Part shown: piece after piece, positions 20,061 through 52,157 of the stretch
Numbering within the stretch: position 1 is the stretch's first letter
Layout: every line of letters starts with the position of its first letter
From: an uncultured Nitrososphaeraceae archaeon
Lineage (GTDB): Archaea > Thermoproteota > Nitrososphaeria > Nitrososphaerales > Nitrososphaeraceae
Assembly: GCA_963825865.1 (NCBI GenBank)
Contig: CAWGVG010000010.1
Coordinates: forward strand, 31,683-95,682
DNA length: 64,000 nt
Reading direction: 5' to 3'
Position numbers and translations under genes: made by a program
Notes under the pieces: model-generated
What the model was told of the DNA's origin: nothing
The model's database searches: none
The model's input: the letters and a program-made list of their open reading frames with translations, nothing else

Positions 20061-20502
20061 GTATTAAAATAATTTCTTATGCGCCCTTCTGAAGGGCTTT
20101 TCTTTCGTTAATTGCTCTCCCATTAATGATGCTAAATAGCGAGTTTGTTTGTTTTTTTATGAAATGGGTCGGCGTCAATGTATACCATATCTGACTATAT
20201 ATGATAGAATTTTAAAATATTTCTGTAATAAATCTCCAAAAAACAAGGCTAAGAAGAATATTCAAGAAAAATTGATAAGAAAATATTGCATGTTACAAGC
20301 CATTTCCGCACTTTATTACAAACTTTTATAAAATCAAAAAATATTAGATAGTGTATAAAGACAAAACTAGAGAAATTTCTTTCATAAAAAAACATTGTAA
20401 GTACCAATTAAAACCAATTGAGGTCAAAAAAGTTCGCTCTTTAGGGCATTTTATGCTCAGCCTTAAAAAGAATCCGGATTTACCTTGCGTGATAAGTGAT
20501 AA

Positions 20503-21156
20503 ATGTCTAACAAAAAAAGGAAAGAACTTATTTCAATTGGTTTCAGAGTTAACGAAGTTCACAATTATTACAAGCTAATGCATCTCTTCTGTAATTTCTA
20601 TAGACTTTTGTTTGCTAATATCTATGCAAACTTCTCTCATTACTTGTATTACACGTGGGTTAATTTCTCCTGCTGCTGGCCTTATTCCTCTGAACTAGCA
20701 GTAACTATCCCACTAGATATATGTGTGTGTGCATATATCTGATAATTAGATCTGACTTTGTTCTTTGATGGAATATCTGAAGCATTGTTTGACGAGATAC
20801 CAAAGCCACCATTGGCCAGATCCAGAGTATTGTTAGATATTGAACGATTCGACATTGGACAGAGTTATGTTACAGCTAAAGTACAAAATAGATATGGCGA
20901 CAAGGTCACTATCAACATACAGGGTGGACTTCCCGGAATAGAACTACAAGAAAGCCTTTTCAAAATTAAAGATCTTGAAAAAGGAGATCGTCTAAGTTAC
21001 GCTTATTTATTAACAAAACTGATACAAACTGATAAGATACTTGTAAGAAAGCTGCCTGTTATTGGTATTAGGGATTGGTTATTAATTTATGAGGATACGT
21101 TAGTTGAACTTTCAGTAAAAGATGCTTATGATGAATTAGAAATCATTGTAGTTTAA
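20503..21156 (+). CDS. Hypothetical protein, probably membrane-anchored (frameshifted)
   Basis: Protein-like ORF 20758..21156 preceded by hydrophobic coding-like sequence. Confidence 0.4.
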
Positions 21157-21445
21157 AGAATTCTTTAGTATGGCATCGAATTAAACACAAAGATATAGAG
21201 AAATTTCGAACTCTGCTTATCCTGCAGATAAGAACCAAGACTAAGTCTTGTGCATATATCATAACGATTAAAGGAAATTGGTGAAACTGAAAAACCTTCC
21301 CCTTCAAGAAATACTAAATTTATAATTGAAAAATATTATTCTATTTGAATATGGATTTAAAACTGGTTGCCTAGTCATCATAAAGGCAAAAAGCCATCCC
21401 TGTACATAAACAGACACTAAATACCCTTTGGATAACGTTTTTAGT

Positions 21446-21467
21446 TATATATATATATATATATATA
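21446..21467. repeat. (TA)n microsatellite
   Basis: Run of about 11 TA units. Confidence 0.8.
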
Positions 21468-22277
21468 TTTTATATGATAGACTGATATTTTATAATGATT
21501 TTTTTTGAACATAAGATATCTTTTATAATTTAAAAAAATAAAAATGTGTTAGGAGTTTAATTTGTCTCCTTTAGTATAGTACCAATAGCCTAATCATCCC
21601 TTGTTGAATCATAGACATTTGTGTCTACAATCTATGAACACAACTGTTGAATTCGGACCGCCTGGACACTTATATACTGGCCCTTCACGGCTGCCTGCCT
21701 AGGTGTCATCATGAGTGATCCTTGAATTAAATCAAATAGTATATATCTACATAACAAACAAAATCAATTCTGTTCTTAGTCTATTATCATAAGAAAGGCC
21801 GTAGCCTGATAATATTTGTCAGAGGAAACTAATTCCATTTGAATGTAGTATTGTAGTGTTTTACCATTATTGCTTTTCTTGAATATGTTTTTGCCAAGGC
21901 TCTTTTGTAATAAGACTACCTTCTTTGTTTTCTGCTCTCCGTATTCTATTGACATCTAAGTCCAGCTACGCCAAAGTCATTGTAAATAACATTAATTTGA
22001 ATGTGATACAATACTCTTGAGAACTATTTCACTAGGTTATGCATGTTACATCATCATCCAAAAACTTTAGCAGACTTTTTTTGACGACATCATCCAATGC
22101 TTGCTTGGGCTCATCCATAATAAACATCTTTAAGTGCACTGTATTACATTATCATCTATCTGAAGATATTCTGCTATTCTCGGTCTAAATCTGCCTCTGA
22201 ACCATAGAAATGAGTTGACTATAATATAGCATAGATTGATTCAATATCCATGAAAAAGGACAAAACCTTGTTTTTTA

Positions 22278-22505
22278 CTAGTATGCGTGATATTCTTGTT
22301 TATGCCGCCTTAATTCTTTTAATGCCATAAACAGACTATCACATTTTTCGCATTTCCAATGGTTTATGCTTGGCTGCTCATACCTACCAGCAGAGGTTTC
22401 TTTAGTTTTTTTATAAAATCCAGTTTTATCGTTATAGCTAATATAATTATAGTTGAGTTTGTACTTGTTAAAACCTCTATGCTCAACTTGTGACAGTCCT
22501 TTCAT
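22278..22505 (-). CDS. Small C2H2 zinc-finger protein
   Basis: WKCEKCDSLFMALKELRRHKQEYHAY. Start overlaps the upstream stop (ATGA). Confidence 0.7.
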   Translation of the reverse strand: MKGLSQVEHRGFNKYKLNYNYISYNDKTGFYKKTKETSAGRYEQPSINHWKCEKCDSLFMALKELRRHKQEYHAY

Positions 22506-22729
22506 TTTTGCATCTTATCCCTATAGCAGGTTTTATAATCATGAATGAAGGCTTGTTTTAGATCATCAGTAAGATCTTCAAGTTCTTGACTATTTTTTGA
22601 TTCGCTTTTATTACTACTACCACTTGTTTTAATTCCAAGCGAATCCAGTTCATTTATCCACCAACTGCCATTTTCAGACTGCTCATTACCATTGACGGTA
22701 GCGCCGGTAAGCTTTTTGTTTTTTATCAT
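22502..22729 (-). CDS. Small hypothetical protein
   Basis: 75-aa ORF coupled to the Zn-finger gene, with an upstream gagtga RBS-like sequence. Confidence 0.55.
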   Translation of the reverse strand: MIKNKKLTGATVNGNEQSENGSWWINELDSLGIKTSGSSNKSESKNSQELEDLTDDLKQAFIHDYKTCYRDKMQK

Positions 22730-22743
22730 TTTTTCTCACTCGT

Positions 22744-23058
22744 TTAAATTAAAAAAATTATGGAGATGTAGATTGTCCTGCTGCCTTGAGCCTGACTACT
22801 GCGCTGGCTACAGATCACTGCCATACATCCTTGATCACCCCTTTGTGTCTGACTGTTGGTTTGAGTAAAACTACTAGATGATCCAGGATGCAGTTTTTGT
22901 GTATCACGAGTTGCATCTGTTTGTCCTCGGCTGCATCCACTTTTGGCGAATGCTTGTCGTGTAATCGTTGTTGTTACTCTCATTAAGCTAGCTGGTACTA
23001 CAAGTAACATCAATATTACCAATTGTTTTGTTGTTGTAATTTTCATTTTACATCCCAT
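22744..23058 (-). CDS. Small secreted hypothetical protein
   Basis: Hydrophobic leader ending AFA, then a Gln/Ser-rich body. Confidence 0.4.
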   Translation of the reverse strand: MGCKMKITTTKQLVILMLLVVPASLMRVTTTITRQAFAKSGCSRGQTDATRDTQKLHPGSSSSFTQTNSQTQRGDQGCMAVICSQRSSQAQGSRTIYISIIFLI

Positions 23059-23640
23059 TTTTCCTTTATTATCTAACTTATCTAACTAATAGAGATATAC
23101 ACTCTATCTAGATCCATTCTACACGGTACCAAATTTTAGAGCCTAAACAAAAATCATGTCAGTGGCTAAACTATGAAGTTATTAAAGATTCCACCATTAA
23201 GGAATTATGCGTGTGTGTGTGTGTACGTGCTGCGGCGTGACCTTCTTGCTCTCTCTATATGTGTTATGTATATCGCGTTATACATAGGCATTCTGAAACA
23301 ACAAACTGACTGTTGACTCTATATAATAAACGATATAGGTTAGTTTTGTTCTTGTTTTTGAAGTATTTTATGAAAGAAATATTAAATTATATTTGTCTTC
23401 ATTTGATTTTTTACCCCTGGTAAAAAGATGCTGTTGTGTTTGTAGTTGTTAACTACTCTATCATTTTATGCATAGTTGTATATGTATATTTATAAATTAA
23501 TATAATGTGTTATTAATTATTGGTGACATTAATCAATTGAAGACTTTATAGAACCTTGTATTTACAAGTTAGTTATCAAGAATATTTACTATCAATAGAT
23601 AAATGAATAATTTCACCTATAATTATTGATATTCGTAATA

Positions 23641-23710
23641 ATTATACTAGATAAGTCAGCATAAACTTCCTTAAGTCAAATATATAGATGACATTGTAAT
23701 GCTTGTGACA
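23641..23710 (+). promoter_or_regulatory. Orphan copy of a repeated promoter-like module
   Basis: ttatactaRataagtc...aagtcaaatatatagatgacattgtaatgcttgtgac is shared with ~28581..28661, ~30369..30460 and ~31215..31290. Confidence 0.7.
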
Positions 23711-23881
23711 CTTGTTATAATTCCTTCCTGACTTGAGCACGATTTACTAGCAAAGGATAAAATGAATATGATACATCAGGGTTGATAAAAAAATTATAGT
23801 AGTAGATACGAAAATTTCTTACTATCATCTGTCTTTATTATTGCCATCGCGATAATTTTTTATGTTTTTCAAAATCAGATA

Positions 23882-24223
23882 TTATATGGGAAATTTGAGT
23901 GTGGACTTCTCGATTTTTATGATAGGAACGTATAACGATTGGGTGTCGGTACCGATACTATCGACAAAACTGAATTCGCCACTCAGTCGCTTTAACTCAA
24001 TGAATTTCTTGCTTGGTTTTTCATTCTGTACAATGTAATTGATGATAATGCCTCCGCCTGCTCCAGTCAGGATGAATAGGATCTGTTGATTATTGTAGTT
24101 GATATAGTACAGCATTGGAGTTAAGCCCAGTGCCGATTGAGCAGAGTATACTATCACTTTGAGCAGGTCTTCTAAGGTTTCATACTTTAGGTAGGTTGTA
24201 AACCTCCCTTCGCTTTGTGACAT
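23882..24223 (-). CDS. Hypothetical protein, archaeal conserved-type
   Basis: Intact 113-aa globular-looking ORF. Confidence 0.7.
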   Translation of the reverse strand: MSQSEGRFTTYLKYETLEDLLKVIVYSAQSALGLTPMLYYINYNNQQILFILTGAGGGIIINYIVQNEKPSKKFIELKRLSGEFSFVDSIGTDTQSLYVPIIKIEKSTLKFPI

Positions 24224-26412: not shown

Positions 26413-27579
26413 TAAGTGAAGTGTCTGAATTTATGTCGTTATTTGTTCATTACATAACCTAGATTTGGAAATAGTTAAAGCTTAGTAAATGAGATATTTT
26501 CATTCTGTGAATCATCCTTTCAAACTCAAACTTACCATAGGACAGAGGAACAAATTAAAGTCATTTATGAAGAATACGGGTAACAAAAAAGAATACCGCA
26601 GGCTACTGGCTATACTCCAAAAAGCTGAAGGTAGAACTTACGAAGACATAGCAAATGAACACGGAGTCAGCAGCAGGTCTGTACAGAGATGGGTTGCTGC
26701 CTATATCCAAAGTGGGATAGATAGAATAAAGATGAAGAAACCTGGCGGAACAAAATCTGGCATAACAGATGAAAACAGAGAGATTATTCTATCAGCATTA
26801 TTTAACGACCCGCACATCTTTGGTTATCTTAGAAATACATGGAGTCTGAGATCACTTGCAAACTGTCTGACAAATGAGCTAGGAATCCCAATCAGCTTCA
26901 AGCACCTGCAGAGAATAACAAAAGATTTAGGAGTTAGGTGCAAAAGACCAAAACTGGAACTGCTACATGGAGGAAAGGATTATGAAGAGGGAAAAGAGAA
27001 AGTGCAAAACTACAAACAGATAGCTTCAGCTCTGAAAAAAAGGGAGTTGTAGTAGCATTTGAAGATGAGACTATTATAACACAGAAACCTTGTATTCGAA
27101 AATCCATGAGTTTTGAAGGTGAGCAACAAAGGATAGAACATACTGGTAGTAGAAAGAAGTTCTCTGCATACATATCCATGGTATGGCCTGAAGAGAAATT
27201 AATGACGTATGATTTCTATGATAAAATGGATTCTACGAATACTATCGACCATCTAGAGAATCTCAAGACAAACATTATGAAAAATGATTGGTGGAAAAGA
27301 CTGGTACTCATATGGGATAACGCTTCATATCATGTAAGCCTAATGGTACGGAATTATATCAATGCACAGAGAAAGAAGACTGGCTGACCATAATCCACCT
27401 TCCAAAGAAAGCACCATACCTAAATCCGAATGAAAGGAAAGTAAACCAGCAAATAAAGTCAGATGTATGTGCGAATAGATTCTATGAACATATGGAAGAC
27501 CAGAAAGCTGCAGTATCAGAATATTTGGACAAACGATTTGGAAGATGGTATGACGACATTAGTTATGACACTTGACTTA
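26413..27579 (+). mobile_element. Complete IS630-family insertion sequence
   Basis: Imperfect 27-bp TIRs including the terminal TA: TAAGTGAAGTGTCTGAATTTATGTCGT versus reverse-complement TAAGTCAAGTGTCATAACTAATGTCGT. Encloses HTH and DDE ORFs. Confidence 0.92.
26489..27575 (+). CDS. IS630 transposase; HTH orfA and DDE orfB joined at an AAAAAAAGGG slippery site
   Basis: orfA has HTH and WS motifs. orfB has AFEDET, LIWDNASYH and LPKKAPYLNPNE. Extra indel near 27370. Confidence 0.9.
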
Positions 27580-27590
27580 TCACTACTACA

Positions 27591-28218
27591 TTAATCCAAC
27601 TCTGCCGATAATCTTTTAACCAAATATTCTATTGAAACTGGCTTTTTGATAAAACATCCTAAACTTACATTTGGATATACCTCTCTTAACGCCTCAATAT
27701 TAGATTCTCCTGCAGTCATAAAGCAAACTCTAACGTTGACATCTAACTCTGATATCTTTTGACAAAACTCAAGGCCATTGATATCAGGCATGTTAATATC
27801 AATTAGCAATAGATCGTAAAAGTTTGGTTTGAATTCTGATAATGCTACTAAAGGGTTATTGTATGTGTATACTTGAAATCTTATTTTGTTTTCATTATCG
27901 TCCTCATAACCTTCATAATACGTTTCTAAACCTAACTTGTAGGTAAAAGTGGTATCATCATTATCATCTACAATAAGGATTCTTTTGTAAAGTGGCTCCT
28001 TTGCTGTTTTTATATCGATAGTATTTGATTCGTGATTTTGTAGAGGAGGACGAACAGAAGAGGGGGTGAAAGATTGAGAATGGTAGTGCTGATTATTCTT
28101 ATGATTATTATGAGAATCATAAAAATTGTCATTATCTGAGATTGCAGAATAATAACAATCCTTTTTACCTTGTATGGTAGTTGTGCATAGATTAGTTAAT
28201 AATTGCCATCATCCCCAT
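27591..28218 (-). CDS. Response regulator receiver protein with low-complexity N-terminus
   Basis: Frame stays open upstream of the 72-aa ORF: KRILIVDDNDD...DLLLIDINMP...FMTA...IKKP. Confidence 0.85.
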
Positions 28219-28580
28219 ATTATTTTCCATATTTTACTACTCTAAGCCAACATATATCAACTTATGTAAAGTTATAATGGCAAAGCAACAATAAATTCAC
28301 CAATAATCTTAGACCATTCTATTTTAAAGACATATTTTTCGATAATTTTGAATTCATGAAAAAATCATCGCATAAATTATTACTTAATTATTTAGCATAA
28401 TTATTATCGATCTATATAGAGAGATTATTTGATATAACAAACAACGATTTGTGTACATACCTTTTCAGAAAATTGTATTACTATTAATAGATATATAAAT
28501 AAGTTCTAATAGTTTGGTAACATTAATAATTATATCAAACAATTTAGCAGCAAATTACTTTACAGAAATCAGGTACTAGA

Positions 28581-28661
28581 TTATACTAAATAAGTCTGTA
28601 ATAACAAACAGTAATAACTTGCACAAGTCAAATATATAGACGACATTGTAATGCTTGTGAC
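28581..28661 (+). promoter_or_regulatory. Repeated promoter-like module with TATA-like AAATATATAG
   Basis: Lies directly upstream of ATG AAC AAC; same arrangement at two paralogues. Confidence 0.7.
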
Positions 28662-28670
28662 GAAATCTAA

Positions 28671-28997
28671 ATGAACAACACAAAATCACTAGCAATAGTT
28701 GCTGTCTTAATAGCGGCAACATTAGTAGTAGGAGTAACGTTCGCAGCGACAACACCAACAGCATCAGCAGCATATGGTCATAAGAAAGGAGACAAGAGAG
28801 ATGACAAGAGAGATGCTAATGGTAACACAATTACCGCTCAGATAAATGCACAAAAAGGGTATGTAAGCGGATTTGATAACACACTAGAACAAGAAGCACA
28901 AAACGTGATATGTACACATCCAGGCAGCAATGCAACCTGTGTAAGTGAAGGCAGCGAATCTACTGCAACTGACACAACTGACAACGGCGGAGAATAG
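28671..28997 (+). CDS. Small secreted protein, MNNTK family paralogue 1
   Basis: Signal peptide; GNT.T.Q...Q.G.VSGFDNT.EQE.QNVICTHP shared with the gene at 30469. Confidence 0.8.
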   Translation: MNNTKSLAIVAVLIAATLVVGVTFAATTPTASAAYGHKKGDKRDDKRDANGNTITAQINAQKGYVSGFDNTLEQEAQNVICTHPGSNATCVSEGSESTATDTTDNGGE

Positions 28998-29175
28998 AAT
29001 AGCAGCTGTAGCTGTTACTATGTGGTAAGGTAGTTACTTTACCTTTTTTTCTTTTTTTGCAATAATGTTATAATTAAATAATTCTCCTTGATGACATGGT
29101 CATGATTTATGTATGTGGTGTAATATCACAGAGACATTTTTTACAAAAAATCGATTTTTGAATACTGTAATATAT

Positions 29176-29589
29176 TTAACCCTTAATTATCCCAAGAGTA
29201 AATCCCATTGCTGTACTACCGGTTAATGGAATACCAAGATTTGCCATTGTAGATGTTATTGGTAAGATATGAGTAGCAGCTGCAGTTACAGTTGAATTAT
29301 TGCCTAAAATAGATTGAATTGGCCCCACTCCTCCACCTGTAGTAGTTGTCGCATTTGTTGTTGTTGTAATCGTTGATAAAACACTATTTGATATTATTTG
29401 CAGCTTATCCCAGTTTACATTCAGTATATGCTGAGATTCCAAATACATAAGGGCAGCAAAAAACACTCCTGCTATTACAGCTAGTATTTTCATTATCCGT
29501 TTTAAAGCAAAGCCAACCAAGAAACCTGCTATACCACCAAAACCAATAGTACTGACAAATGGCATGATATTACTCTCAATGCCGCTCAT
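29176..29589 (-). CDS. FUN14-family membrane protein
   Basis: IGFGGIAGFLVGFALKR.MK...YL....ILNVNWDKL and terminal GFTLG. Confidence 0.85.
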   Translation of the reverse strand: MSGIESNIMPFVSTIGFGGIAGFLVGFALKRIMKILAVIAGVFFAALMYLESQHILNVNWDKLQIISNSVLSTITTTTNATTTTGGGVGPIQSILGNNSTVTAAATHILPITSTMANLGIPLTGSTAMGFTLGIIKG

Positions 29590-29593
29590 TTTT

Positions 29594-29812
29594 CTATTTC
29601 CTCCTACTTTTGGTTGCTTTGTTGTAATTGTCGTTGTTGTCTATGTCTTTACTACTATTACCAAGGTATCTTTCAATTGCCCTCCGAATATACCTGCTCC
29701 TAGGAATATCGCCACGCTTTTGGTCGATTTTCTGTATTATTGATTTAGGTAAAGTGATTCCTAGCTTTACAGTCATATCAATCGTAGCAGCAGCAATCGT
29801 ACTACTTGTCAT
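29594..29812 (-). CDS. CopG/RHH transcriptional regulator
   Basis: VKLGITLPKSIIQKIDQKRGDIPRSRYIRRAIERYL. Confidence 0.85.
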   Translation of the reverse strand: MTSSTIAAATIDMTVKLGITLPKSIIQKIDQKRGDIPRSRYIRRAIERYLGNSSKDIDNNDNYNKATKSRRK

Positions 29813-29814
29813 AC

Positions 29815-29829
29815 TAGTACAATGTACTA
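29815..29829. promoter_or_regulatory. Perfect palindrome TAGTACA-A-TGTACTA, candidate RHH operator
   Basis: Lies 2 bp upstream of the probable RHH start codon. Confidence 0.55.
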
Positions 29830-30368
29830 CACACATAGCTAAAAGGTTTTCGATAGCAGATTGTTTAAGATTATTATGGTATTATATTGCGTATATTGAT
29901 TAACTTTTTTTTCTGTATGTATTAGAACAATATATCTATTAAATTAAAATACACAATTGCTAATCAGAATCACATATTCAAGTAGAATAGCTATTTTCTA
30001 AAATTACAATCTTTACACTTTATTACAAGTGCTAACCGATTGTCATAAAACACCAATAATAGCTAAATGAATAACCTCACTTGATTTTATATAACGCATA
30101 TAGCTAAAATATTTTCGACAGCAGATTGTACTAAATTATTATAGTAGTATATGATGTAATTAGATTATCAATAGATATATTGAAAGATAGTATGCTTTTC
30201 CTTTTATTTCGTAATATCCAATAATAGATAAATAGATAGTTATCACCGATTACTGGCTATAAACAGTAAAAATATCCAGTAATAGATAATAGCCAATATA
30301 CTATTAATTAGAGAATATAACTGATAATAGACAACTGAGTTTTTTACTTAGTTTGATATCGTCAATAG

Positions 30369-30460
30369 TTATACTAAATAAGTCAGCATTAAATCATATT
30401 AAATAAATCATAATTAACTTACTCAAGTCAAATATATAGAATAATTGTAATGCTTGATAA
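30369..30460 (+). promoter_or_regulatory. Repeated promoter-like module
   Basis: ttatactaaataagtcagc...aacttactcaagtcaaatatatagaataattgtaatgcttg. Confidence 0.7.
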
Positions 30461-30468
30461 CGAGTATT

Positions 30469-31111
30469 ATGAACAACACGAAAACTCTAACAGCAATAGC
30501 TGCTATATTAATAGCGGCAACATTAGTAGTAGGAGGAACATTAGCATCATCAACAACAACAGCATTTGCTTATAAACAAAAGAAAGGAGGGTCACAAGAA
30601 AATAATAAAGATGGTAACACAGTTACCGTCCAGAAATGCAAACAAATAGGGTCAGTAAGTGGATTTGATAACACAGCAGAACAAGAATGTCAAAACGTGA
30701 TATGTACTCATCCAAGCGAGCGGTGCAACCTGTGTAAGTGAGCCAGGTCAAGCAACACCACCAGCTACGGCAACCTTATTAGTCAAAAAAGTCGTAAAAT
30801 GTCTACAAGATACAATAACAACAGATGGCTGTCAGAACCAAAAGTTCAAAATAACAGTAACAGATACCAATCCTGACCCATCTTCATTCGATCTTGGAAA
30901 TGGCGGCACTCAACTTGTGACATTAGATGCGGGTATCTTACACAGTAAGTGAACCTGAACATGCAGGCTTTAATGTTACTTTCTCTGGTGATTGCAACGC
31001 AACTGGCGAGGTACCATAGCTGCAGGCGTACACCAGACATGTACTATTACAAACACAGAACATACAATGTGTGCGTTTGTGTTAGTGCAACACCAAAAAG
31101 AAATCAACTTA
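30469..31111 (+). CDS. Secreted MNNTK-family paralogue 2 with added beta-sandwich (prealbumin/Cna-B-like) domain; several indels, end approximate
   Basis: Shared N-domain, then across frames ATLLVKKVV...ITVTDTNPDPSSFDL..GGTQLVTLDAG.YTVSE...VTFSGDC...CTITNT. Confidence 0.7.
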
Positions 31112-31307
31112 ACCTGCCAACATCCTTTTTTTTATTTTTTAAGATTCAATCGGTAATAATTAATACTATTATCAATCGGTAAGTGAATACTTCACTAAAT
31201 TTATATCGTCAATAGTTATACAAAATAATTTAGTAGTACATCATATTAAATAAATCAGCATTAACTTACTCAAGACAAATATACAGATGATATCATATTA
31301 AGAAAAT

Positions 31308-31678
31308 ATGAACAACATAACTACAAAAAATCTAGCTGTAGCTGCTGTCGTAGGCAGCAATACTAGTAATGGGAGGAACATTTGTAGCACTACAACCTGC
31401 AAATGCTATCGATGAAGTATACTCTCATTCTACCACAACAATATGTATAGATGATACACCGTGTGTCACAAAAATTTGTATAAATGACGAACCATGTCAT
31501 AATGCTGTCACATCAAATCCTACAAATACAGGCCATAATGCTGTCACATCAAATCCTACAAATACAGGCCATAATGCTGTCACATCAAATCCTACAAAAT
31601 ACAGGCCATAATTTAACTAATAATAATAATAAGGAAGGTCATACCTTATTTTCACTTTTTCCTCAAGAAAACAAATAA
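31308..31678 (+). CDS. Small secreted Cys-containing protein with related leader (frameshifted)
   Basis: MNNITTKNLAVAAVV leader, TTTICIDDTPCVTKICINDEPC and the same upstream module. Confidence 0.6.
31498..31612 (+). repeat. 36-bp tandem repeat x3 encoding HNAVTSNPTNTG
   Basis: cataatgctgtcacatcaaatcctacaaatacaggc repeated; third unit has one extra A. Confidence 0.9.
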
Positions 31679-31974
31679 TTGATATCGGATAAATAAGTAA
31701 TGAGGTTAATTGTTCTATGCGCTTTGCATTGCATGTGTGTTATTAATGGAATATATACAAATGGAGCTCCTCTTATTTTTTATTAACCTTGTGGCGTAGA
31801 ATCTGTCAATATAGATAATATCCTAGAAAAAGAGAATTTATAAAAAGCCTCAGTTTTTTTGTCTGGATTACCATCAAGTTGCTACTGCTTTGTAGCTACT
31901 ACTAGTGATGTGATTCCAAAACTAATATATCAATAATGAGAATGTTATAATGTAATATTGTTATGTTACCAGTT

Positions 31975-32843
31975 ACTAGTAACTTACATTCGTATCATTC
32001 TAATTTTCCCTCTGTCAATGGCCTTATAGGGACCTGGTCCTTTCTTACTTTGAGTTTATCGAATATGTCTGTGCAGATTGAGGAGATTGCTCCTCTGTTA
32101 TTTCTAGACCCAATTCGTTCTTTATCACATCCTTTCCTTCCCTTGCACCAATTAGTATTATCTGTGCATTCTGATAGTCTATGAATTTTGTATCCTTAGC
32201 AAGAGATACAAAGTTCTCAGTCTCATTAAATTCCTTTAGCACCTCCTGTGGATATTTTGGCGGTTCCTCTGTGCTTGGATAACCTGTTGGGGCTGGCCTT
32301 TTAGGATTAATAACTGAAATAATATAACTTGCTTCCTTTTCGATACCTAGTTCTTTTTGAGCTTCACCAGGTTGTTCTGGCATTTCTAAAATATATGCAA
32401 GTTCTGCATGGTTTTGATGTCTTACTATGGCATATTTTCCTTCACCGACTGGTCTAGCTGCATCACCTTTTCTAAATTCATCTGACAAGAGACTCTTTTG
32501 TGAGCTCATTAGGATCATTAAAAATACCACCTACTCTAGCCCAATACCGCTCAGACGCTCTGGCCTCACTCTTTCTGATCTCGGGGAGTGATTTTTTACC
32601 TATAACAAATAGCCTATAAAACTGATTTTTATCACCACTCTCTTTAGTATTTTCTGATTTTTCAGGGGCAGTAACCATAAAAAAGCGCCTAACATCCTCA
32701 ATGCCCTTTACCTCATCCGCACCTTTCTTGGGCCTATAAAAGAAATAGATATCACCTTGTTCTAGAATTTCAGGTTTAGTATTATCACCATTATTATTAT
32801 TAGCATTCATTTGATTTTCTTGTTGTCTTTGTTGTTGGCTCAT
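31975..32843 (-). CDS. Conserved hypothetical protein (apparent indels near 32500 and 32070)
   Basis: ILEQGDIYFFYRPK...RLFVIGKKSLP...ARPVGEGKY...LAYILEMP...SYIISVINP in two overlapping ORFs. Confidence 0.75.
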
Positions 32844-32869
32844 AATTAAATTCTCCCTCTCTTTCTTTT

Positions 32870-33139
32870 TTAATTTATTAAAAGTGACAAATTACATTCT
32901 TGACAAAAGTAGCAGAGCCCATTAAAATCAGATGATAATGACATTATATCATAACAGCGAGGACATTCAATTTCCTGTTCTAGATCTTGTAGCATTTTCT
33001 TTTCTCCATTGTTATCCTCAGTTTCTTTCTCATATTGCAAAGGATTAGGATCGAGTCGCTGTTGTTGTCGTTGTTGTGTTGCTGTTGCTGATGATGCTGC
33101 AATAGCAATTTCTTGCTCCTCATTTTTTTGGACTAGCAT
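32870..33139 (-). CDS. Small Zn-ribbon protein
   Basis: IECPRCYDIM...YFCQECNL. Confidence 0.65.
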   Translation of the reverse strand: MLVQKNEEQEIAIAASSATATQQRQQQRLDPNPLQYEKETEDNNGEKKMLQDLEQEIECPRCYDIMSLSSDFNGLCYFCQECNLSLLIN

Positions 33140-33320
33140 TGATTAGATTGAGTTGCTATTATATCCTGAATCACCATAAGGGGAGGGAGTCTCTATTTGT
33201 ATTGTACCTAATTGAAATGGTATATTACGATCAATGTACCTCTCTCTCCCTGTCCCCAAGTAGCTTTCCTAGTTATATGCAAGACAAAGCCAATGCAATA
33301 TCAAGAGGTCAGATAAAATC

Positions 33321-34429
33321 ATGTCTCATGTCAGTGAATTGCGACTAGAGGACCTACCTGATGTTGAACCATATTTGATAAATAAACTAAAAAGAGCTGG
33401 AATACAATCAGTTTTAGACCTAGCCGCATCAATCCCCATCGAACTTGCAGGAGGAGGAGATTATATCGATGATGACAACTCAGCAATTACAGCTGACATA
33501 GAGACAATATCACAACTTGTAGGTAAGGCCAAAAAAGCCCTTATAGATTCTGGCTCACTTAACAAGGAGTTTTGCACAGCTGAAGAGTTCCTTGAAAGGA
33601 GAAATAATCTTGTCAGATTTACAACAGGATCTGTAAACCTGGATGCATTCTTGAAAGGTGGAATAGAATCCCAAGCAATTACAGAGATTGCAGGGGAATT
33701 TGGTTCAGGAAAAAGTCAGTTATGTCATACTTTATGCGTTACTGCTCGGCTAATAATAATAAAGAGAAAAGAGGAAAACTGGGACGAGGAGGAGGAACAG
33801 TAGCAGGAGACCTTAGCAGAAAAAACTAATAATAATATAATATTCATAGATACAGAAAACACTTTCAGACCAGAGAGAATTCACCAGATAGCAGAAGGCA
33901 GAGGACTCGAGCCAGAGGAAATAATGAAAAGAGTGTTTGTATGCAAAATATACAATAGCGCTCACCTTGAAGCTATAATAAAAAATCTTGGCAAATCTAT
34001 AGAACATTACAAAGCCAAGCTTGTTATCATTGATAGCATTATCTCGCTTCACAGAGCAGAATTTCCAGGAAGGGAGACCCTGGCTGAAAGACAGCAGAGG
34101 CTCAATGTTATGTTACATAGACTGATAAGGCTAGCAGAAATTTACAATGTCGCAGTAGTTCTTACAAATCAAGTTCAGTCACAACCAGATAATTTTTTTG
34201 GCGGTATTGGTGGTGGTGGAAGCGATCCAACGTGTGCAGCTGGAGGTAATATTATGGGACACGCCTCTACATACAGGATTTTTCTAAGAAAAGCAGGTCA
34301 TGACAGAATAGCAATAATGCTTGATTCGCCACACCACGCATACGGTCAAAACTAAGTTTACAATTAGTGAAAAAGGAGTACAAGGATACTAGAGGAGGAG
34401 GAGAAAGCAAGATCAGGGAACAGCAGTAA
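33321..34429 (+). CDS. radA: RadA/Rad51-family recombinase paralogue with N-terminal HhH domain (apparent indels near 33750 and 34350)
   Basis: LEDLPDV HhH, TTGS..LD..L.GG, Walker [22 protein letters not shown], Walker [30 protein letters not shown]. Confidence 0.9.
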
Positions 34430-34477
34430 CAAATACAGTGAGTCTGGCTGGTAGGTAGGAGGTAGTAGCATAGCAAC

Positions 34478-36350
34478 ATGACCCCTGGGGACAACAACAT
34501 ATTAAGAACAATCCCTCAGGAAAAAGATTATCCTCTTGATCCAAATACAATTCCAGTACCACCATCATCCCAGCAGCCAAGACCGCAGGTAACATTATCC
34601 GAATTAATTCCGGGAAATATGTCTCTACTAGCGCAAGAGTAGTTTATCTAAAGACTATTGAAAGACAGGATGCTCTTGGAAGCAAGATGCTATTTTCTGG
34701 AATATTAGAGGATTCTACTTTTAAAGTTCCTTTTATCAGCCACAGGATTTCATATCCTTTGATAAGGAACTCTGTCTACAAATTTGACTCGGCTTATGTA
34801 CATGAATTTTCGTCCTCAGATAAATCGCTTTTACTAGTAATAACAGAGCATACAAAAATAGACTCCAAGAATATTGACGATTACAGGGAATTTATTTGGA
34901 GCCCAAAGATAGAATCGATAAAGAGGCCAGTTAGAAACCTTACTTTGCAGGGATTAATCACAACAGTACATAGTAATTCTGGACTGGTCAAAAGATGTAA
35001 CAAATGCAAATCAATAATCTATGATTCATGTCCCAATAAATGTCCTCAAGAGGAGGGTTGGGGCTGGGACCTCAGAGTGTCCTCAAGGCTCTACGATGGT
35101 TCAGGGTCAATAAAGATGGTTTTGACAAAGGATATAGCATCAAAAGTGTTGCACATGAATTTAGCAGAGTTAATTTTACTTGCAACAACAACAACAGCGT
35201 AGTAGTAATGTTCCAGCCCAAAGCTACAGCAACGACCAACACCATCACCAATTTCAACCACCATCTGTATTTACAATAAAGATTCCTGATAGCATCGATA
35301 TAATAGAGGCAGTAACAGAGGACAATATTTTGTCGTCCTCTTATAGGAGCAGCGAAAAGCTCATAGTAACTGATGGACGAAACCTTGTCTATTTCCCACA
35401 AAATGAGGAGAATGAGCAAAAGTTCTCAGAATCATTCAAGAGACCATTAAAGACCTCTGATGTGAGGATAAAAAAATAATCAAAAGGCTGATTGAAAAAG
35501 CAGTCGATATCAACATCAGAAAAGTTACTGGCAAAAGGATGATGCAGGGGATTTATCTCCTTGAGGAACCTATTTCCCTTTATAGATGTGAAAGGGCGAA
35601 ATTATACCTTGGATTTTCAGTCAGGCTGAATATAAAAGAAAAGGAAAAAGAACAACAAGATAACGCAGCAACTGTAACAACGACTGCTGCTGTAATTGAA
35701 ACAACTCCACAAGCCTACGTAAGAGAAAGCGTGCTTGATTATATTAAAATGAGAAGGGAGCGTGGTGCATCTGCAAATGCCATTATACGTAACTTGTTAA
35801 CATATAGAAATAAGGTGGTTGTGGCCCCATCTGGAAACTATGGTAGTATTGTTGATGTAATCATAAGAAAGGCAGAAACCCAACTCGTTTCAGACACCGA
35901 CAAGAGAAACTTGGTAGAATTCTGGAAGCAGATATATGATATTGACATATCAGCTGATGAAATTCCACTACTAAAAGTAAAGATGATGAATTCTGAAAAT
36001 ATCTTTACCTACCCTCCCAAGTATGTGCTTTTTTGGGAGCGAATCTTTACTTATTCAAGCAGACGTTCAAAAATTCATTGAGAGCAAAAAGTCCACACTC
36101 AAAGCAAGAATGGATGATAGTTATCAAAAAGGCAATAGTAACACAAGATTTGGCTATAGGACCTACAAAACTAGAATTTGAAGAGGAACAGAATGGTTCA
36201 CAAGGGCAGCGGCAGCCAGGTGACATTCAAAGCCACATTCTGCAAGAAATAAGACAGAAATTATTTGGGAGGAACGTTACAGCTAGAGGTTCGATCATGT
36301 TTGTTCATGATGAGCTTTGGTTCTTTCCATACCAATTGCAGCTTTCATAG
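34478..36350 (+). CDS. RPA-like multi-OB/Zn-finger ssDNA-binding protein with an inserted Argonaute N-L1-PAZ-like region (one gene reconstructed across about five apparent indels)
   Basis: OB motifs SGILEDSTFKVPF and LQGLITTVHSNSGLVKRCNKC...C...C...DLRVSSRLYDGSGSI. Insert has TDGRNLVY, LYLGFSVRL, ESVLDYI and NLVEFWKQIYDIDI...PLLKV...YPPSMC. OB completion IRQKLFGRNVTARG. Confidence 0.75.
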
Positions 36351-36353
36351 AAT

Positions 36354-37215
36354 GTGAGTGGTGATGAGGTAAGAATGAGCATTTATACAATCAATGAACC
36401 AAGTAATAACAATAATCAAATCTCATTTGAAATGCATTCGGCCTTAGAGCAATTCAATGATCACAGAAATACTTTAAAGATGACCACAGGATCGGCCGAC
36501 CTTGACTCGTTAATAGATGGTATACAAGAAGGGTTGTTCTATCTATTTTATGGCAACAACAACTATGCGGTACAGGATTCCCTTGTATACAGATTCCTTG
36601 TTAACTGTGTACTGCCAATAAAACAAAAACATGGTTTTGAATCAATGGGCGTTTGTTTTAATAATGCAGATTATTACAATAGTAGAAAGACATCTCTTAG
36701 CCCAGAAAAGTTAGGAGTTGCAGCAAAATGTGCTAGCATAGATCCAAAGATTGTTTTTAAGAACTTGTACATCCATACCGCATATAATGAAGCAGCAACA
36801 GCTATTAGTTGCAGAACAGGTTGCTGACCTAATAGAATCTAACAAGGACATCAAGCTGCTAGTAGTTAATAGATTAACAAGATTTTTCAAAGAATCAAAA
36901 AAGAAAATGGAAACTGCCAATGTCTTGAAGCAGGTTGTAGGAATAATTTGCAAGGCTTGTGCTAAGGGTAAAGTAGCACTAGTATGCACTGGTGATTCAA
37001 ATTTGACAAGCAAAGGTGTAATACCAAGGCCAATAGGTGGAATATACCTAAAACATGCGGCAAATGTGATTGTACATATTAAAGAATATCCTAACAGCAC
37101 TGCTGCCATTCCTTCATTTAAGGCAACATTGGTTAAACACCAGTATATGAAAACTCCAAAATCAGCAGTTCTTTACCTTAGAAAGTTTAGTGGAGGAATG
37201 ACACTTTTAGATTGA
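36354..37215 (+). CDS. RadA-like protein with degenerate Walker A/B, probably inactive (indel near 36790)
   Basis: MTTGSADLDSLIDGIQEG and PIGGIYLKHAANVIVHI...ATLVKH are retained. Walker A reads YGNNNYAVQD and Walker B reads LLVVNR. Confidence 0.8.
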
Positions 37216-37252
37216 ATTCTGAACCAAAAAAATTGATAGGTGGTGTTGATAT

Positions 37253-37625
37253 ATAGGCAGAATAACGCCATCATTTCGTCAACTATATGAGGAAACAATA
37301 TCAGAGCTAAGAACAGAGCTGCAGGCAGCACTTGTAGATTTAGGTCACAAGAGTGCATTTGACTTGCTGTTAAAGGAAGCCTGGAATCCAGAACAGGCTC
37401 GCTATGGGCAATTCTACCTTACCCACGGTTAGTGACAAACTAAATGTCATGGCATCAATACACAACAGAAAGCTTATTGCAGTATTGGCAAAGGAATTGA
37501 AGGAAAAGGATGTTGGGATAGAGGAACTCAAGCAGAATATCGCTTCACTTCAGGATAAATTAAATGAAATATACATTGAAATGAAACCCAAGGGAGACAA
37601 GCAACTACCCCAACAGCAACAGTAG
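37253..37625 (+). CDS. PolB2-associated small helical protein (arCOG07300-like), copy 1, with coiled-coil tail
   Basis: Hand translation (I)GRITPSFRQLYEETISELRTELQAALVDLGHKSAFDLLLKEAWNPEQA, joining ORF 37404..37625 through one indel. Similar to 40239..40505. Confidence 0.7.
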
Positions 37626-37656
37626 TAGGAATAATTGGAGCCATAATATAATAACA

Positions 37657-40104
37657 ATGTCAAGTTGTACCGGCTGGCTCTTTGATATTTCTATAGAACA
37701 TAATCAAGCTGTCCTGTGGATAAAAACTATCGATAGACAGATCCTTAAGCTAATAGACACTTATCAGCCAAGGTTCTACATATTACCCAGAAATGAATCT
37801 GATGGATTACATCTTTTCCAAGTATTATCTCAACAAACCATAGTGGCCAAAGTTAGATGGGAGGAGGACAAGCTTACAAATCTTTTTGATCATGATTATA
37901 CTACAACAAAAAAGAAAAAACTAATTTGTGTTTACCCCCAATCCACACAGTATTATGTACCCATTCTAAAAATATTAGAAAAAGACCATAGAGTAAAGCA
38001 ATTGTTCAATACAGATCTCTCACATATCCAGCAATATTTGTTTACCAGATTGAGAATTGAACCTACAAGTAAAGTTGAAGTGGAGTATGAGGGTACTACG
38101 ATAATTAGAATAAGCAAAATTGATGACGAACAAGAGGTATCTCCACCTCCCTTTTCTTTACTATATATTGACGTTGAAACATTTTCAGGAAAATTTACTT
38201 TTGATGATCCGATTAGAATGATAAAGACTAGGTATGAAATTGGTGATGAAAAGGAGAATAGAGAACATGTTTCATTCCAAAGCAATGAGGAAAATATCAT
38301 CCTTCAGGATTTCTCTAATTACGTGCTTGCTAAAGATCCCGACATCGTTGTTTGCGTGAGAGAGTCTGAGAGTAAAATATTTCATTACCTCTTTACACGA
38401 ATAAAGAAACTTGGGCTTAACTTGCAACTTGGGCGAGAGGTCCCATCAGAGGATCTCGTGAGTTTAAAGCGCCCAGTGTCAGAGTGGATCAGAGGTAGAA
38501 TTTGCATTGAAAGCAGTGATGGTAGTGGTGGGATTAATAGACAACAACAACAACACTCAACATTTGATAGTTTTGGGCTTGCAGGATTAATAGAAAGATC
38601 AAAGTTCGGTTTTGTTCCTTTGAGAATAGCTGCAAGATACGGTATAAACCGTCTAATAGATAGCAGGAATTGTTATGAATTAATCCAGAGAGGCTTTGTT
38701 ATTTCAAAGAATAATCATTCTGGTGGAAGCAAGAACAATAACGATAACAATCATGAACGAATCAGGACCTTAGAGGAACTGGTTTCAAGGGATAAGGGCG
38801 GTATGATAATATCTCCTCAGGTTGGCTTGCATGAAAATGTTGTATCACTAGATTATGACAGCGAATACGCAAATCTAATAGTGAATCATAACTTGAGCTA
38901 TGAAACTGTTACCTTACAAGATGGAGGAGTAGTCCTACAACAATTCAATGACAACAAAAAAGGCTTGTTGCCTACCGTTGTAGAGAAATTTCTCAAAAGA
39001 CGGCTCTATTTCAAGAGATTATTAAAAGAACTACCAAAGGAGAGCATGGAGTCTCTCTGTTGCGAACAGCGTGTCAATTCATTAAAGAACATACTAGTTT
39101 GTCTTTATGGTGCAACTGGTTCTCTCTGGAATAGATATGGTAATGTGCTTGCTTTTGAGGAAATAAACAAAATATCTAGGGAAATATTGATAAAAACAAA
39201 GGATATTGTTCAGCAGTTAGGCTATGAGCTGGTATATGCAGATACAGACTCTGTATTTATTAAAAGGAAAGATGCTGCGATAACCACTGTAATGCAACGA
39301 CAATAAGCCGATCATGAACAAGTTGTAGATATATTATCCAAAGAAACAGGCCTTTCAATATCTGTCGATTATAATTACAAGTTTTTGGTGCTATTGCCTA
39401 TTGAAGCTGATGAAAATATAGAGGCATTAAAGCACTACTATGGAATTACACAACAAGGCGAGTTAGTTGTCAGGGGTATAGAAATTAGGAGACACGATAT
39501 TCCAAACTTTATAAAACAATTTCAAACTGAATTACTATACACACTTTTTAATTGCAAAGATTCAGCTGAGGTAGTAAGCAAAGGATATGAAAATTGTCTT
39601 TTATTGGTTACCAAAGCAATAGATAAAATAATGACAGGTGAAGGCGTTCACCAAGAGGATCTTGTAATCTCTAAATTACTTGGACAGGATATACAAAAGT
39701 ACAAGAGTTTATTTCCCCATGTCTCTGCTGCTATTCAATTATTAAACAATAAAGGAGGAGGGGGTAAATATCCAACAAAAGGCGACACTATCCGATATAT
39801 TTATACAAATTCACAACACAACAACCCCCTTTGCAGAGTTGTACCTTTAGAGATTTTACAAAAAGGAGAAAAAGACGGTAAGGAGAATGGTAAAACTCTG
39901 AATTATGATAAGGAAAAATATAGGGAAATGATACTTGATGCTGCAGAAACTGTTCTAGGTTATTTCGGCTTTAATAGGACTGTTTATGAAAATCCTAGGA
40001 ATAATAGAACGAAAAAAAAGAAATGGTATGATGAATTGCAGGGAGAAAGAACAAAAGATATCCAGACAGAGAGAATGATGGAAAACAATAAAGCGTACAT
40101 TTAA
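37657..40104 (+). CDS. polB2: Family B DNA polymerase, PolB2-like (apparent indel near 39300)
   Basis: DKGGMIISPQVGLHENVVSLDYDSEYAN (motif A), KNILVCLYG (B), YADTDS (C), KHYYG, VRGIEIRRHD, YDKEKY. Confidence 0.9.
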
Positions 40105-49314: not shown

Positions 49315-49671
49315 ATCAAAATAAGCAACTTATACAGGTTAATCTATCTATCTATCTATCTATTGAGATTCTAGAGGTCTATTTGAATGCAACATGCCTC
49401 GAAAAGAATTGTTAGGTTACGCGCGGGTGTCATAGTTTAGAAGATTTTGAAAACAATATTCAAACAAGCTTGTTTTTGAATAGGCTCAACATCGAAAATC
49501 AATATAAATTGTAAACCATTCTAGTACTATATTTGGTATGGTACTTCCATGGCGTTGGCTGGTACATAATTATGTTCCAAGCTTTAATAATTTGTCTGAC
49601 GAATCAATACAGTCAATCGAAAAGTGTCAATCTGCATTAATGAGACAGAGCCATAAATTATTAATTTATCT

Positions 49672-50028
49672 TTACTGTAGCGCGATCTCTCCACACTGTT
49701 TTGACCCGATATCGTAAGCTTCAAAAATATCTTTGACAAAGATTTTACCATCTGAAGCTGAGCCTGTACTTAAATTTTTGATGAGATCATCAACAAGCCG
49801 TTTTGCCAATGGATCTGATACCAATACGTCAATCTTAGTTCTACTTCCAAATTCTGGAACATATTTCTTTCCATAATTATATGCATCTGTGTTAACTGGC
49901 ACTTCTCTTTTCACTCGACCTCTGCCTTTTATATCATAAAACATCATTCCGCCAACATTGTGTTTATACAAAATGGCATTTACTTCAGAAAGTCTTTCAT
50001 GTGCAATAACAACTTCTATTTGCTTCAT
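49672..50028 (-). CDS. P-II family nitrogen regulatory protein
   Basis: MKQIEVVI, KGRGR, DGKIFV. Confidence 0.88.
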   Translation of the reverse strand: MKQIEVVIAHERLSEVNAILYKHNVGGMMFYDIKGRGRVKREVPVNTDAYNYGKKYVPEFGSRTKIDVLVSDPLAKRLVDDLIKNLSTGSASDGKIFVKDIFEAYDIGSKQCGEIALQ

Positions 50029-50218
50029 TCTGTTAATTTGTACACATCTTATGTAGATAACGATCTATAAGCAGCTCTGCCTACTTATAATAAATGGGTT
50101 TTATTATAGCACAAATGATATCGGAGAGATTGATCTATATACTTTCAGATAAATACATTTCTTAATTTGTGAATCATGTTATAAGAAGTCAACAAGATCT
50201 TTAACTAAACTTAAAAGA

Positions 50219-51559: not shown

Positions 51560-52157
51560 TAATATATTCATTTAAACATGTAAAATATCGCGACACTAAG
51601 GGACAGCACTCAACTCTCTCTCTCTCTGTGTGTGTGCTCAACTAGGATCATGTGTTGAATATTTTAATAATAACGCAGTATTATCAGATCCGCTTGAGGG
51701 ATATATTAGAGAAAAGGATGCATTATATGCTATAAAGAAGAAATTCAGGAAGAATTACGTGACCATATGAAAAAGGCATCTTAAACGTTTTGGTGCCAAA
51801 GAGTTCCTTAATTCAATGTTTGAAAAGACATGATAAAGATTATGGGTGTTTGCAATACCTACCACAGTATTTGGCTCTAGAATTCCTTTTACTACTTTGA
51901 TAAATACTGATGATAATAATAATGATAAATGTCCCATTTGATGAAATGTCTTAGTATTGTTGACGTGTGTATCTATATTCAAGTTGTATACCTTGTTTGG
52001 TTATTCATATTTGTTAGCAAGTTGACTTTTATAATATAATAAACAGGAGTTCATTTGAAAATATCGTTGGAGATCTTAATTGGCAATAGTTCGTCATTTT
52101 TTAGCAGTAGGGGCAGATGACATTTAATTTTATTTAGCTGTACTACATATCACAGCA

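Follow-up and report, generated by a model that had tools for sequence, protein, structure and literature searches.

A predicted Argonaute N-lobe within the RPA-type protein of a PolB2-type operon in Nitrososphaerales archaea

The PAZ domain and the Argonaute N-lobe are known from Argonaute proteins, PAZ alone also from Dicer, and RPA-type OB folds bind single-stranded DNA (ssDNA). Both kinds of module appear to be combined in the product of a gene at positions 34478..36350 (+ strand) of a 64,000-nucleotide stretch of DNA from an uncultured Nitrososphaeraceae archaeon (GenBank assembly GCA_963825865.1, contig CAWGVG010000010.1; G000:C10:31683-95682 in our numbering), the whole of which is called the window below. 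There is little doubt, judging from the structural model, that this protein, here termed RPA-Ago, consists of one OB fold and then another that bears a Cys4 zinc ribbon, and that the latter is interrupted, probably between a helix and its last two strands, by an Argonaute N-lobe of ~320 residues. The gene lies in an operon with recombinase and DNA polymerase genes, where its product may read ssDNA and 3' ends for a repair complex. To the explanation as a whole, comprising architecture, operon and mechanism, we assign a probability of roughly 0.55.

For the operon, the closest described system is that of the archaeal polymerase PolB2. Passages of one study predict an operon of PolB2, an inactivated RadA and arCOG07300, and suggest that the PolB2-iRadA module acts in alternative replication initiation or its regulation (PMC4104785). 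In sections of another, the PolB2-iRadA-PPB2 'mutasome', encoded in the order iRadA-PPB2-PolB2, is modelled as a DNA-damage-induced translesion or extender complex; the same sections describe iRadA-PPB2 fusions and some TACK PolB2s that keep a DxD motif (PMC11791011). A third source places a related operon of a PolB, a small protein and an inactivated RadA within a cryptic element integrated in Nitrososphaera gargensis (PMC6563490). As for the Argonaute side, PAZ secures the guide's 3' end, as stated in part of PMC6299218.

Predicted architecture of the RPA-Ago protein

In the window, the gene is not a single long open reading frame (ORF) but is divided among six overlapping pieces in the forward frames. 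An intact paralogue of 628 amino acids (aa), 94% identical as a protein, is encoded in the same genome (G000:C9:15474-17357), and when the two copies were aligned globally as DNA, 1749 positions matched, 118 were mismatched and 8 indel events were counted. Five of these events, each of 1 nucleotide (nt), break the frame of the window copy, namely deletions near 34612 and 35464 and insertions near 35196, 36015 and 36120; of the others, one inserts 3 nt at 35208 and keeps the frame, one is a difference of 1 nt at 36339, and one is an end gap. Once the frameshifts are mended, the gene encodes ~623 aa, in good agreement with an earlier note on this DNA, which had proposed about five single-base indels in a gene for ~620 aa and whose quoted peptide strings are all present in the three forward frames of the interval. 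Intact relatives have single ORFs of 631 (the C9 paralogue), 611 and 621 open codons, giving proteins of 628, 609 and 613 aa. At 36339, the window retains the family-typical C-terminus (...QLQLS and a stop), from which the C9 copy deviates by 1 nt, ending in ...QLRAFIECGWS and overlapping the next gene (L006:2384 onward).

The amino-terminal third resembles archaeal RPA. Three NCBIfam replication factor A models (PRK06386, PRK07218 and PRK07217) matched residues 36-238 with E-values of 2.7e-16, 3.1e-16 and 1.4e-9; their scores (59.8, 59.4 and 37.7 bits) did not reach the cut-offs of 556, 447 and 353 bits, and the match is best read as a homologous region, not as an equivalog. No Pfam model matched the first 240 residues, and a profile of the family searched against PDB sequences retrieved the OB domain of Ta0387 (2k75, E 5.7e-6). 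The AlphaFold model of the 628-aa paralogue, built on a 68-row alignment, has a mean pLDDT of 84 and a pTM of 0.73, and its best whole-model Foldseek matches were to Pyrococcus abyssi RPA, 8oej_A (E 3.1e-10) and 8aaj_A. OB fold 1 (~residues 40-133 of the intact paralogue; window 34595..34875, + strand like all features of the gene and operon given here) is placed by the modelled strands at 48-131, the Ta0387 match and the replication factor A models. The first part of OB fold 2 (34909..35197), made up of beta1, the zinc ribbon, strands beta2 and beta3, and a pair of helices, is placed by model elements at 152-238 and by the replication factor A match, which extends to residue 231-238. The cysteine codons of the ribbon lie at 34996, 35005, 35029 and 35041; C174, C177 and C185 are invariant in 20 aligned sequences, and C189 is mostly conserved there and invariant in a closer set of 8 rows. 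Strand pattern, Foldseek matches and cysteines agree in describing tandem OB folds of which the latter contains a Cys4 zinc ribbon, and the RPA likeness proposed in the earlier note is borne out by the NCBIfam and Foldseek matches. Foldseek also aligned the full model with RPA70 chains over 634-646 columns, but at a root-mean-square deviation (rmsd) of ~30 A these alignments were not taken as matching the tail to DBD-C. The N-terminus ahead of OB fold 1 is disordered except for a conserved proline-rich stretch, YPDPxxLPxP (residues ~17-30, window ~34526-34567), which may be a docking peptide for a partner.

Beyond OB fold 2, the full model continues with a disordered linker (residues 242-255), a folded block (262-~554), a poorly ordered linker (572-579), and a helix with a beta-hairpin (582-621). 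Linker 1 (35198..35248) is of low complexity, variable and gapped in the alignment, and linker 2 (36150..36224) is variable and partly disordered; the residues named fall below a pLDDT of 50 in both. Modelled alone by AlphaFold (residues 255-576, 322 aa), the insert reached a pLDDT of 91 and a pTM of 0.86. All 50 PDB matches listed for this model are full-length Argonaute or PIWI chains (E 5.9e-11 to 9.8e-8, probability 1.00), aligned over 325-404 columns at 10-17% identity; they include Hili 7yfx (5.9e-11), MILI 9ij5 and 9ij4 (TM-score on the query 0.53 and 0.62) and KmAgo 8xhv (0.52), as well as Siwi, PfAgo 1u04, the Asgard HrAgo1 8r3z, MpAgo and CtAgo. Since the aligned region extends across the entire insert, the latter maps, at the level of predicted fold, to the N-L1-PAZ-L2 lobe. 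The Argonaute-type structural matches anticipated in the earlier note were thus obtained over its full length, and the limits proposed there (~35260..36190) agree with 35249..36194 here.

Within the insert, the boundaries between parts are approximate, being taken from the order of DSSP elements rather than from a residue-level superposition. The N-domain-like part (35249..35461) is recognized from the insert-only model and its whole-length alignment to Argonaute and PIWI chains, and the L1-like part (35462..35730), a long helix and a long beta-hairpin, from the same model and from the PADLOC prokaryotic Argonaute (pAgo) match, which starts at residue 312. The PAZ-like domain (35731..36046), to which the Pfam PAZ match (35863-36037) and an alignment with PIWIL2 PAZ were mapped, shows the helix and beta-hairpin subdomain in the insert model, and W482, E494, P496, Y511, P512 and F518 are conserved in this region of the 20-sequence alignment. 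L2-like helices (36047..36149; helices 527-554 of the full model, 273-300 of the insert model) end the insert.

After the insert, a C-terminal helix (582-594) and two strands (598-608 and 611-621), encoded at 36225..36346, follow in the order expected for beta4-beta5 of OB fold 2. This tail is modelled with a pLDDT of 87-94 and is conserved in all full-length homologues. When residues 140-241 and 578-623 were predicted as two separate chains, the scores were 0.57, 0.56 and 0.56, as against 0.00, 0.00 and 0.01 for three controls, with an agreement between runs of at least 90% of contacts and a partner pLDDT of at least 76. Of 80 solved complexes, 58 reach the pass mark, as do 2 among 110 mismatched pairs, and passing scores of 0.60 or lower are found in only 7 of the 80 solved complexes and in both passing mismatches. 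Two points limit the case for closure of the fold by the tail: the two-chain prediction was rated only 'weak support', and the tails of five homologues, searched against NCBIfam at E<=10, matched no RPA model. The pass may in addition reflect likeness to solved OB folds, both pieces being parts of a common fold. The tail likely completes OB fold 2 in the predicted structure, so that this claim of the earlier note stands as far as the order of elements is concerned, is weakly backed by the two-chain prediction, and finds no counterpart in tail matches to RPA models.

The MID-PIWI half of an Argonaute was found neither in the protein nor in the genomes that carry it. The protein has no Piwi match and ends in OB strands in the AlphaFold model, with no residues left over for a MID domain. 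PF02171 (Piwi) gave no match in the genome of the window (82% complete) or in five other carrier genomes (four of them at 97-98%), although the same scan did detect Piwi in control genomes with known Argonautes; a pAgo model of full length matched, in the carrier genomes, this gene alone and only at N-terminal positions (32-273/666). The observation in the earlier note that no MID or PIWI is visible in the window consequently extends to the whole genome and to five other carriers. Because no Piwi or MID-PIWI partner was found in the carrier genomes, the gene is not a split Argonaute of the AfAgo/APAZ kind.

Operon context and distribution

In the window, the genes are ordered RadA, RPA-Ago, iRadA, a small PPB2-like protein and a family B polymerase, all on the + strand, and the same order is found in the C9 copy and in two other genomes (G076 and G022). 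This arrangement was followed through 38 related loci of species-representative genomes, all of them Nitrososphaerales metagenome-assembled genomes (MAGs). Where the flank extends 1.1 kb or more, RadA is the immediate upstream neighbour in 27 of 28 loci; iRadA is the immediate downstream neighbour in 23 of the 25 loci whose flank is no shorter than 1.2 kb, and PolB lies downstream in 15 of the 19 whose flank is no shorter than 3.8 kb; the exceptions to the order are L040, L055, L056, L064 and L072. RPA-Ago is very probably a member of this operon, which appears to be the described PolB2 translesion 'mutasome' operon extended by a preceding RadA of the active type.

The RadA gene, first in the operon (33321..34355), encodes an N-terminal HhH domain and a Walker A motif; Pfam Rad51 matches both of its halves, it aligns with intact RadA, and tblastn covers it in one high-scoring segment pair (33318-34343). 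The iRadA gene (36354..37215; tblastn pieces within 36432-37209) is frameshifted in the window and also matches Pfam Rad51, but its product, aligned with RadA, has no N-terminal HhH domain, and the GxxGSGKS of Walker A is lost and replaced. The small gene (37253..37589; tblastn 37253-37399 and 37401-37589), likewise frameshifted, encodes a protein of ~105-130 aa whose N-terminus, GRITPSFRQLYEE, is strongly conserved in the family alignment. No Pfam or NCBIfam model matched this protein; from its size and operon position, as set out in portions of PMC4104785 and PMC11791011, we infer that it is PPB2/arCOG07300, the latter being a three-helix protein whose N-terminal arm is conserved. The last gene (37657..40104; tblastn 37648-40083) encodes a family B DNA polymerase (Pfam DNA_pol_B) with DVE and YADTDS motifs, which its operon position places presumptively in the PolB2 clade. 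Weighing against this placement, the polymerase stays under all NCBIfam cut-offs, its best score being 208 bits against the 516 of NF004416. That model was also considered as a PolB2 marker and rejected, given that no control genome reached its cut-off.

In its C-terminal part, iRadA shares homology with the PPB2-like protein, and in some genomes an iRadA-PPB2 fusion occurs together with a second, free PPB2-like gene. The loci concerned are L026:10909-12400, L079, L080 and L081, and the combination of a fused and a free gene matches the 'two copies of a small protein' mentioned for NitGar-E5 in an excerpt of PMC6563490.

Among 301 sampled genomes of the class, the PPB2-like gene is present in 31 and RPA-Ago in 5, all five carriers being among those 31. 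In one close relative without it (G044), RadA ends at 8913 and iRadA starts at 8972 with nothing between them, and RadA and PolB are 86% and 76% identical to those of the carrier G076; G041 and G073 likewise have RadA and then at once iRadA-PPB2-PolB. Because close relatives have the operon without the gene, RPA-Ago is, as far as these genome comparisons go, an optional extra of the operon. In two genomes with neither RPA-Ago nor the PPB2-like gene (G001 and G014), the polymerase matches are distant (27-28% identity).

Beyond these genomes, a word-indexed protein search found 887 homologues at E<=0.001. The 120 listed of these are 488-653 aa long and all unnamed or annotated as 'hypothetical protein'; their organism labels, where given, are Nitrososphaeraceae, and 3 of them carry a precomputed PF02170 annotation. 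An exhaustive search of cluster representatives gave 352 matches, 71 of them at E<=1e-30, and the labels of cluster members comprise Thaumarchaeota/Nitrososphaerota, Candidatus Bathyarchaeota and Thermoprotei MAGs, and one Methylomirabilota, the last suspected to be a mis-binning. Distant full-length members (33-40% identity) align from ~residue 30 to ~618, and all blocks recur in unchanged order in a 20-sequence alignment, among them LLxEIRQKLFGRxVxARGS...F.P at the C-terminus. The gene is conserved in Nitrososphaerales and in other TACK archaea. The ESM Atlas returned only the family's own unnamed cluster.

The proposal of the earlier note that OB and PAZ parts belong to a single gene is upheld by these homologues, which are single ORFs; the short ones are frameshift fragments with variable ends. 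With residues 36-245 as the query, 464 matches were obtained among 558 candidates, and the 120 listed are fragments of the same family, 69-95% identical. Five short relatives inspected have unrelated tails and differing end points, and a sixth is a C-terminal fragment. Neither an uninterrupted ancestor lacking the insert nor a natural split was found among the matches to residues 36-245 that were inspected.

Several genomes hold two or three copies of the whole block, in one case two copies 20 kb apart on one contig. In the genome of the window, ~7.2 kb (~32865-40088) are 91.8% identical to C9:13894-21052, and further whole or partial blocks lie on C9 (38057-41408, inverted), on C27 (~88614-88826) and on C54 (~49500-52300), many of them with stops or frameshifts.

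Possible function and rival explanations

The operon context of the gene makes a role of the protein as a sensor of 3' ends or junctions, as proposed in the earlier note, more specific and more plausible. The OB folds would hold ssDNA, the PAZ pocket would capture an adjacent free 3' end, and the N/L1 part would sit against the duplex. By these contacts the protein would flag a primer terminus that has stalled, or an invading 3' end, beside ssDNA, and it would recruit or position RadA and the iRadA-PPB2-PolB complex, to which the marked end would be handed for damage-tolerant or recombination-associated synthesis. This mechanism, in which RPA-Ago reads ssDNA and 3' ends for a repair complex, is tentative and stands slightly below even odds.

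Several findings weigh against the structural part of the explanation and against the integrity of the window copy. Compared with entire Argonautes, the insert reaches only moderate TM-scores (0.25-0.62 on the query, with an rmsd of 6.6-13.9 A), as expected for a flexible multi-domain lobe, yet they are no proof of the assignment. Pfam PAZ (PF02170) stayed under its gathering score of 28.8 bits in the three homologues scanned (22.1, 18.5 and 18.3 bits; E 1.5e-4, 0.002 and 0.0024) and gave 16.5 bits with the window piece, the PADLOC pAgo model matched weakly (positions 70-273/666, E 0.0019), and PIWIL2 PAZ was found among PDB sequences only at E 0.34. The Argonaute assignment thus comes from predicted structures, accompanied by sequence signals that are weak but consistent with the structural match. 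A prediction artefact or fold convergence, with the insert being an unrelated set of domains, would fit the identity of 10-17%, the subthreshold PAZ scores and the moderate TM-scores. It is nevertheless very improbable, since the listed matches are Argonaute or PIWI without exception over the full 322-residue query, the model is confident, 3 of the 120 listed homologues carry a precomputed PF02170 annotation, and the Pfam PAZ (model positions 46-102), PADLOC and PIWIL2 matches each name the same family and the right part of it. As for the window copy, its five frameshifts are somewhat more likely than otherwise to be consensus errors of the assembly (genome G000, 5.0 Mb in 62 contigs). Against this stand the positions of the five indels, outside long homopolymers, and two in-frame stops made by substitution, TAG at 33801 in RadA and TAA at 39304 in PolB, with homology running on in the same frame on either side. 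The copy might instead be a real pseudogene, one decaying member of a duplicated five-gene block whose function is carried by the C9 paralogue. Five frameshifts within 1.9 kb, the two substituted stops, the frameshifted iRadA and small genes, and several additional copies of the block, on C9, C27 and C54, that are broken as well would all suit decay, as would the broken copies in some short-read assemblies: among the 38 loci, the gene is broken in 4 of 30 there and in 5 of the 8 whose contig names were judged by the analyst to be those of a long-read assembler. Decay is the less probable account, however. When a third genome served as the outgroup, 28 synonymous and 4 non-synonymous changes fell on the window branch (dN/dS 0.039), and 26 and 7 on the C9 branch (dN/dS 0.074). 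With so few non-synonymous changes on its branch, the window copy was under strong purifying selection during almost the whole of its divergence, and five indels unaccompanied by any relaxation in substitutions would be odd for a decaying gene. ORFs of at least 150 codons cover only 48% of the whole genome, which together with the 82% completeness at 5 Mb fits an indel-rich consensus, and the C9 block is itself broken in RadA, iRadA and PolB. At each of the five sites, a compensating indel is present in contigs that come from four metagenome runs on soil and are 90-99% alike; these are relatives of the window gene and not its source reads. No public sequencing run contained half or more of the words of the stretch, the best share being 0.23, and the runs listed included none of RNA.

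Other doubts concern function. The patchy occurrence of the gene (5 of 301 genomes) and its multiple copies in some genomes weigh against a repair role, in that they would fit a selfish or mobile module too. RPA-Ago could then be part of a defence or mobile-element module, a PIWI-less Argonaute-like catcher of small nucleic acids or of invader DNA ends on an integrated element with its own polymerase and recombinase. The related operon in the integrated element of N. gargensis (part of PMC6563490) and the weak PADLOC pAgo match point in this direction, as does an ORF at 26489-27052 (+) of the window with HTH_23, HTH_28 and HTH_32 matches, as found in the N-terminal part of some transposases. 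But the operon has no nuclease, PIWI, Sir2/TIR or other effector, the PADLOC match covers the N-lobe only and no defence assignment of operon proteins was obtained otherwise, and a search of BFVD viral structures gave 0 matches at E<=0.001. The G076 block, moreover, lies among ordinary genes (thermosome and NadA; AP endonuclease, PRTase and P-type ATPase) with no integrase seen, and the operon partners form a DNA-damage polymerase complex in the sections of PMC11791011 cited above, so that a defence or mobile role is quite unlikely. Nor is it probable that the insert binds RNA (primers, R-loops or small RNAs) and thereby regulates recombination-dependent replication or polymerase loading. The best structural matches are indeed RNA-guided PIWI-clade and eukaryote-like Argonautes (Hili, MILI, Siwi, hAgo2 and HrAgo1), and a role of PolB2-iRadA in alternative replication initiation has been suggested (in passages of PMC4104785); yet DNA-guided pAgos (KmAgo, PfAgo, MjAgo and CtAgo) match about equally, sugar preference cannot be read from fold similarity, and the rest of the protein and of the operon act on DNA. 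A 3'-end reader for the repair complex is the function we favour.

Some features of the window lie apart from this operon. In the last 4 kb of the contig (window 60001-64000), G+C rises from ~0.30-0.35 to 0.56-0.58, and the bacterial small RNA family Acido-Lenti-1 is matched above its gathering score at 60432-60478 (-; 41.6 bits); the end of contig C10 may be a chimeric join to bacterial (Acidobacteria-like) DNA. ORFs of at least 150 codons are nearly absent from 12001-16000, 20001-24000 and 28001-32000 (0.14, 0.01 and 0.17 of bases, against 0.48 genome-wide).

Significance and comparison with known systems

A complete Argonaute N-lobe without MID-PIWI, threaded into an RPA-type OB fold, would be a new setting for PAZ, and the family is conserved in hundreds of archaeal sequences. 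Its fixed site between RadA and iRadA-PPB2-PolB would tie Argonaute-type end recognition to translesion or recombination-associated synthesis and suggests a concrete job, that of locating the 3' terminus beside ssDNA. Related genomes with and without the gene in the operon offer a ready functional comparison. Indel-rich assemblies split the gene into pieces, and it is then easily overlooked. The architecture also bears on how Argonautes were assembled from lobes. One speculative and rather unlikely possibility is that the N-L1-PAZ-L2 lobe is a PIWI-independent DNA-repair module of TACK archaea, which reads primer or invading 3' ends for RadA/iRadA-PolB2. On this view, such reading could be what the lobe did originally, and long Argonautes would date from its union with a MID-PIWI nuclease; the PolB2 mutasome would also gain a dedicated substrate-recognition subunit, in a role analogous to that of the RecA filament tip for Pol V.

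Archaeal RPA or replication factor A (P. abyssi RPA 8aaj/8oej; PRK06386, PRK07218 and PRK07217) shares with RPA-Ago the pair of OB folds and the Cys4 zinc ribbon in the latter of the two (E ~1e-16). Unlike RPA, RPA-Ago has ~320 residues inside its last OB fold, falls far below the family cut-off (59.8 versus 556 bits), and is encoded by a patchily distributed gene (5/301) of a RadA/PolB operon rather than by a housekeeping gene. With long Argonaute and PIWI proteins (MILI 9ij4, Siwi 9nhd, KmAgo 8xhv, PfAgo 1u04 and HrAgo1 8r3z), it shares the order of domains and the predicted fold of the N-lobe, including the PAZ helix and beta-hairpin; here, however, no MID or PIWI is found in protein or genome, the lobe is embedded in another fold, and identity is only 10-17%. 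RPA-Ago also falls outside both families by their own measures, scoring under the RPA cut-offs and the Pfam PAZ cut-off and lacking MID and PIWI.

Two described groups come closer in single respects. APAZ-type N-L1-L2 proteins, such as AfAgo-N of Archaeoglobus fulgidus, likewise have an N-lobe apart from MID-PIWI; as characterized in the relevant parts of PMC10954474 and PMC2743648, they are without PAZ and always stand beside a MID-PIWI gene, with whose product they form a heterodimer. RPA-Ago, in contrast, keeps PAZ, is fused into an RPA, and has RadA and iRadA as neighbours, no MID-PIWI partner having been found. Eight long pAgos with an N-terminal OB fold, described in a portion of PMC6299218, unite OB and PAZ in one polypeptide as RPA-Ago does; those proteins are complete with MID-PIWI and carry the OB fold as an appendage, whereas here the OB protein is the host and the Argonaute part the insert.

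The operon resembles that of the PolB2 mutasome in its order of iRadA, small protein and PolB on one strand, in an iRadA without N-terminal domain and ATPase motif, in the occurrence of fusions between iRadA and the small protein, and in the YADTDS motif of the polymerase, which recalls the intact DTD of TACK polymerases (compare the passages on these points in PMC11791011). It differs in that an active-type RadA precedes it in Nitrososphaeria (27 of 28 loci) and that, in a subset, RPA-Ago is placed between RadA and iRadA. The literature searched yielded no account of an N-L1-PAZ-L2 lobe that lacks PIWI and lies within an RPA or next to PolB2. PAZ, Argonaute, RPA and OB-fold have 0 occurrences in the main text of PMC11791011; Supplementary Table S1 and data file 1 of that paper, which cover Pfam domains near polB2, may list the gene. 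The components are known separately, and what appears to be new here is their combination, a predicted Argonaute N-lobe in an RPA-type protein within a PolB2-type operon.

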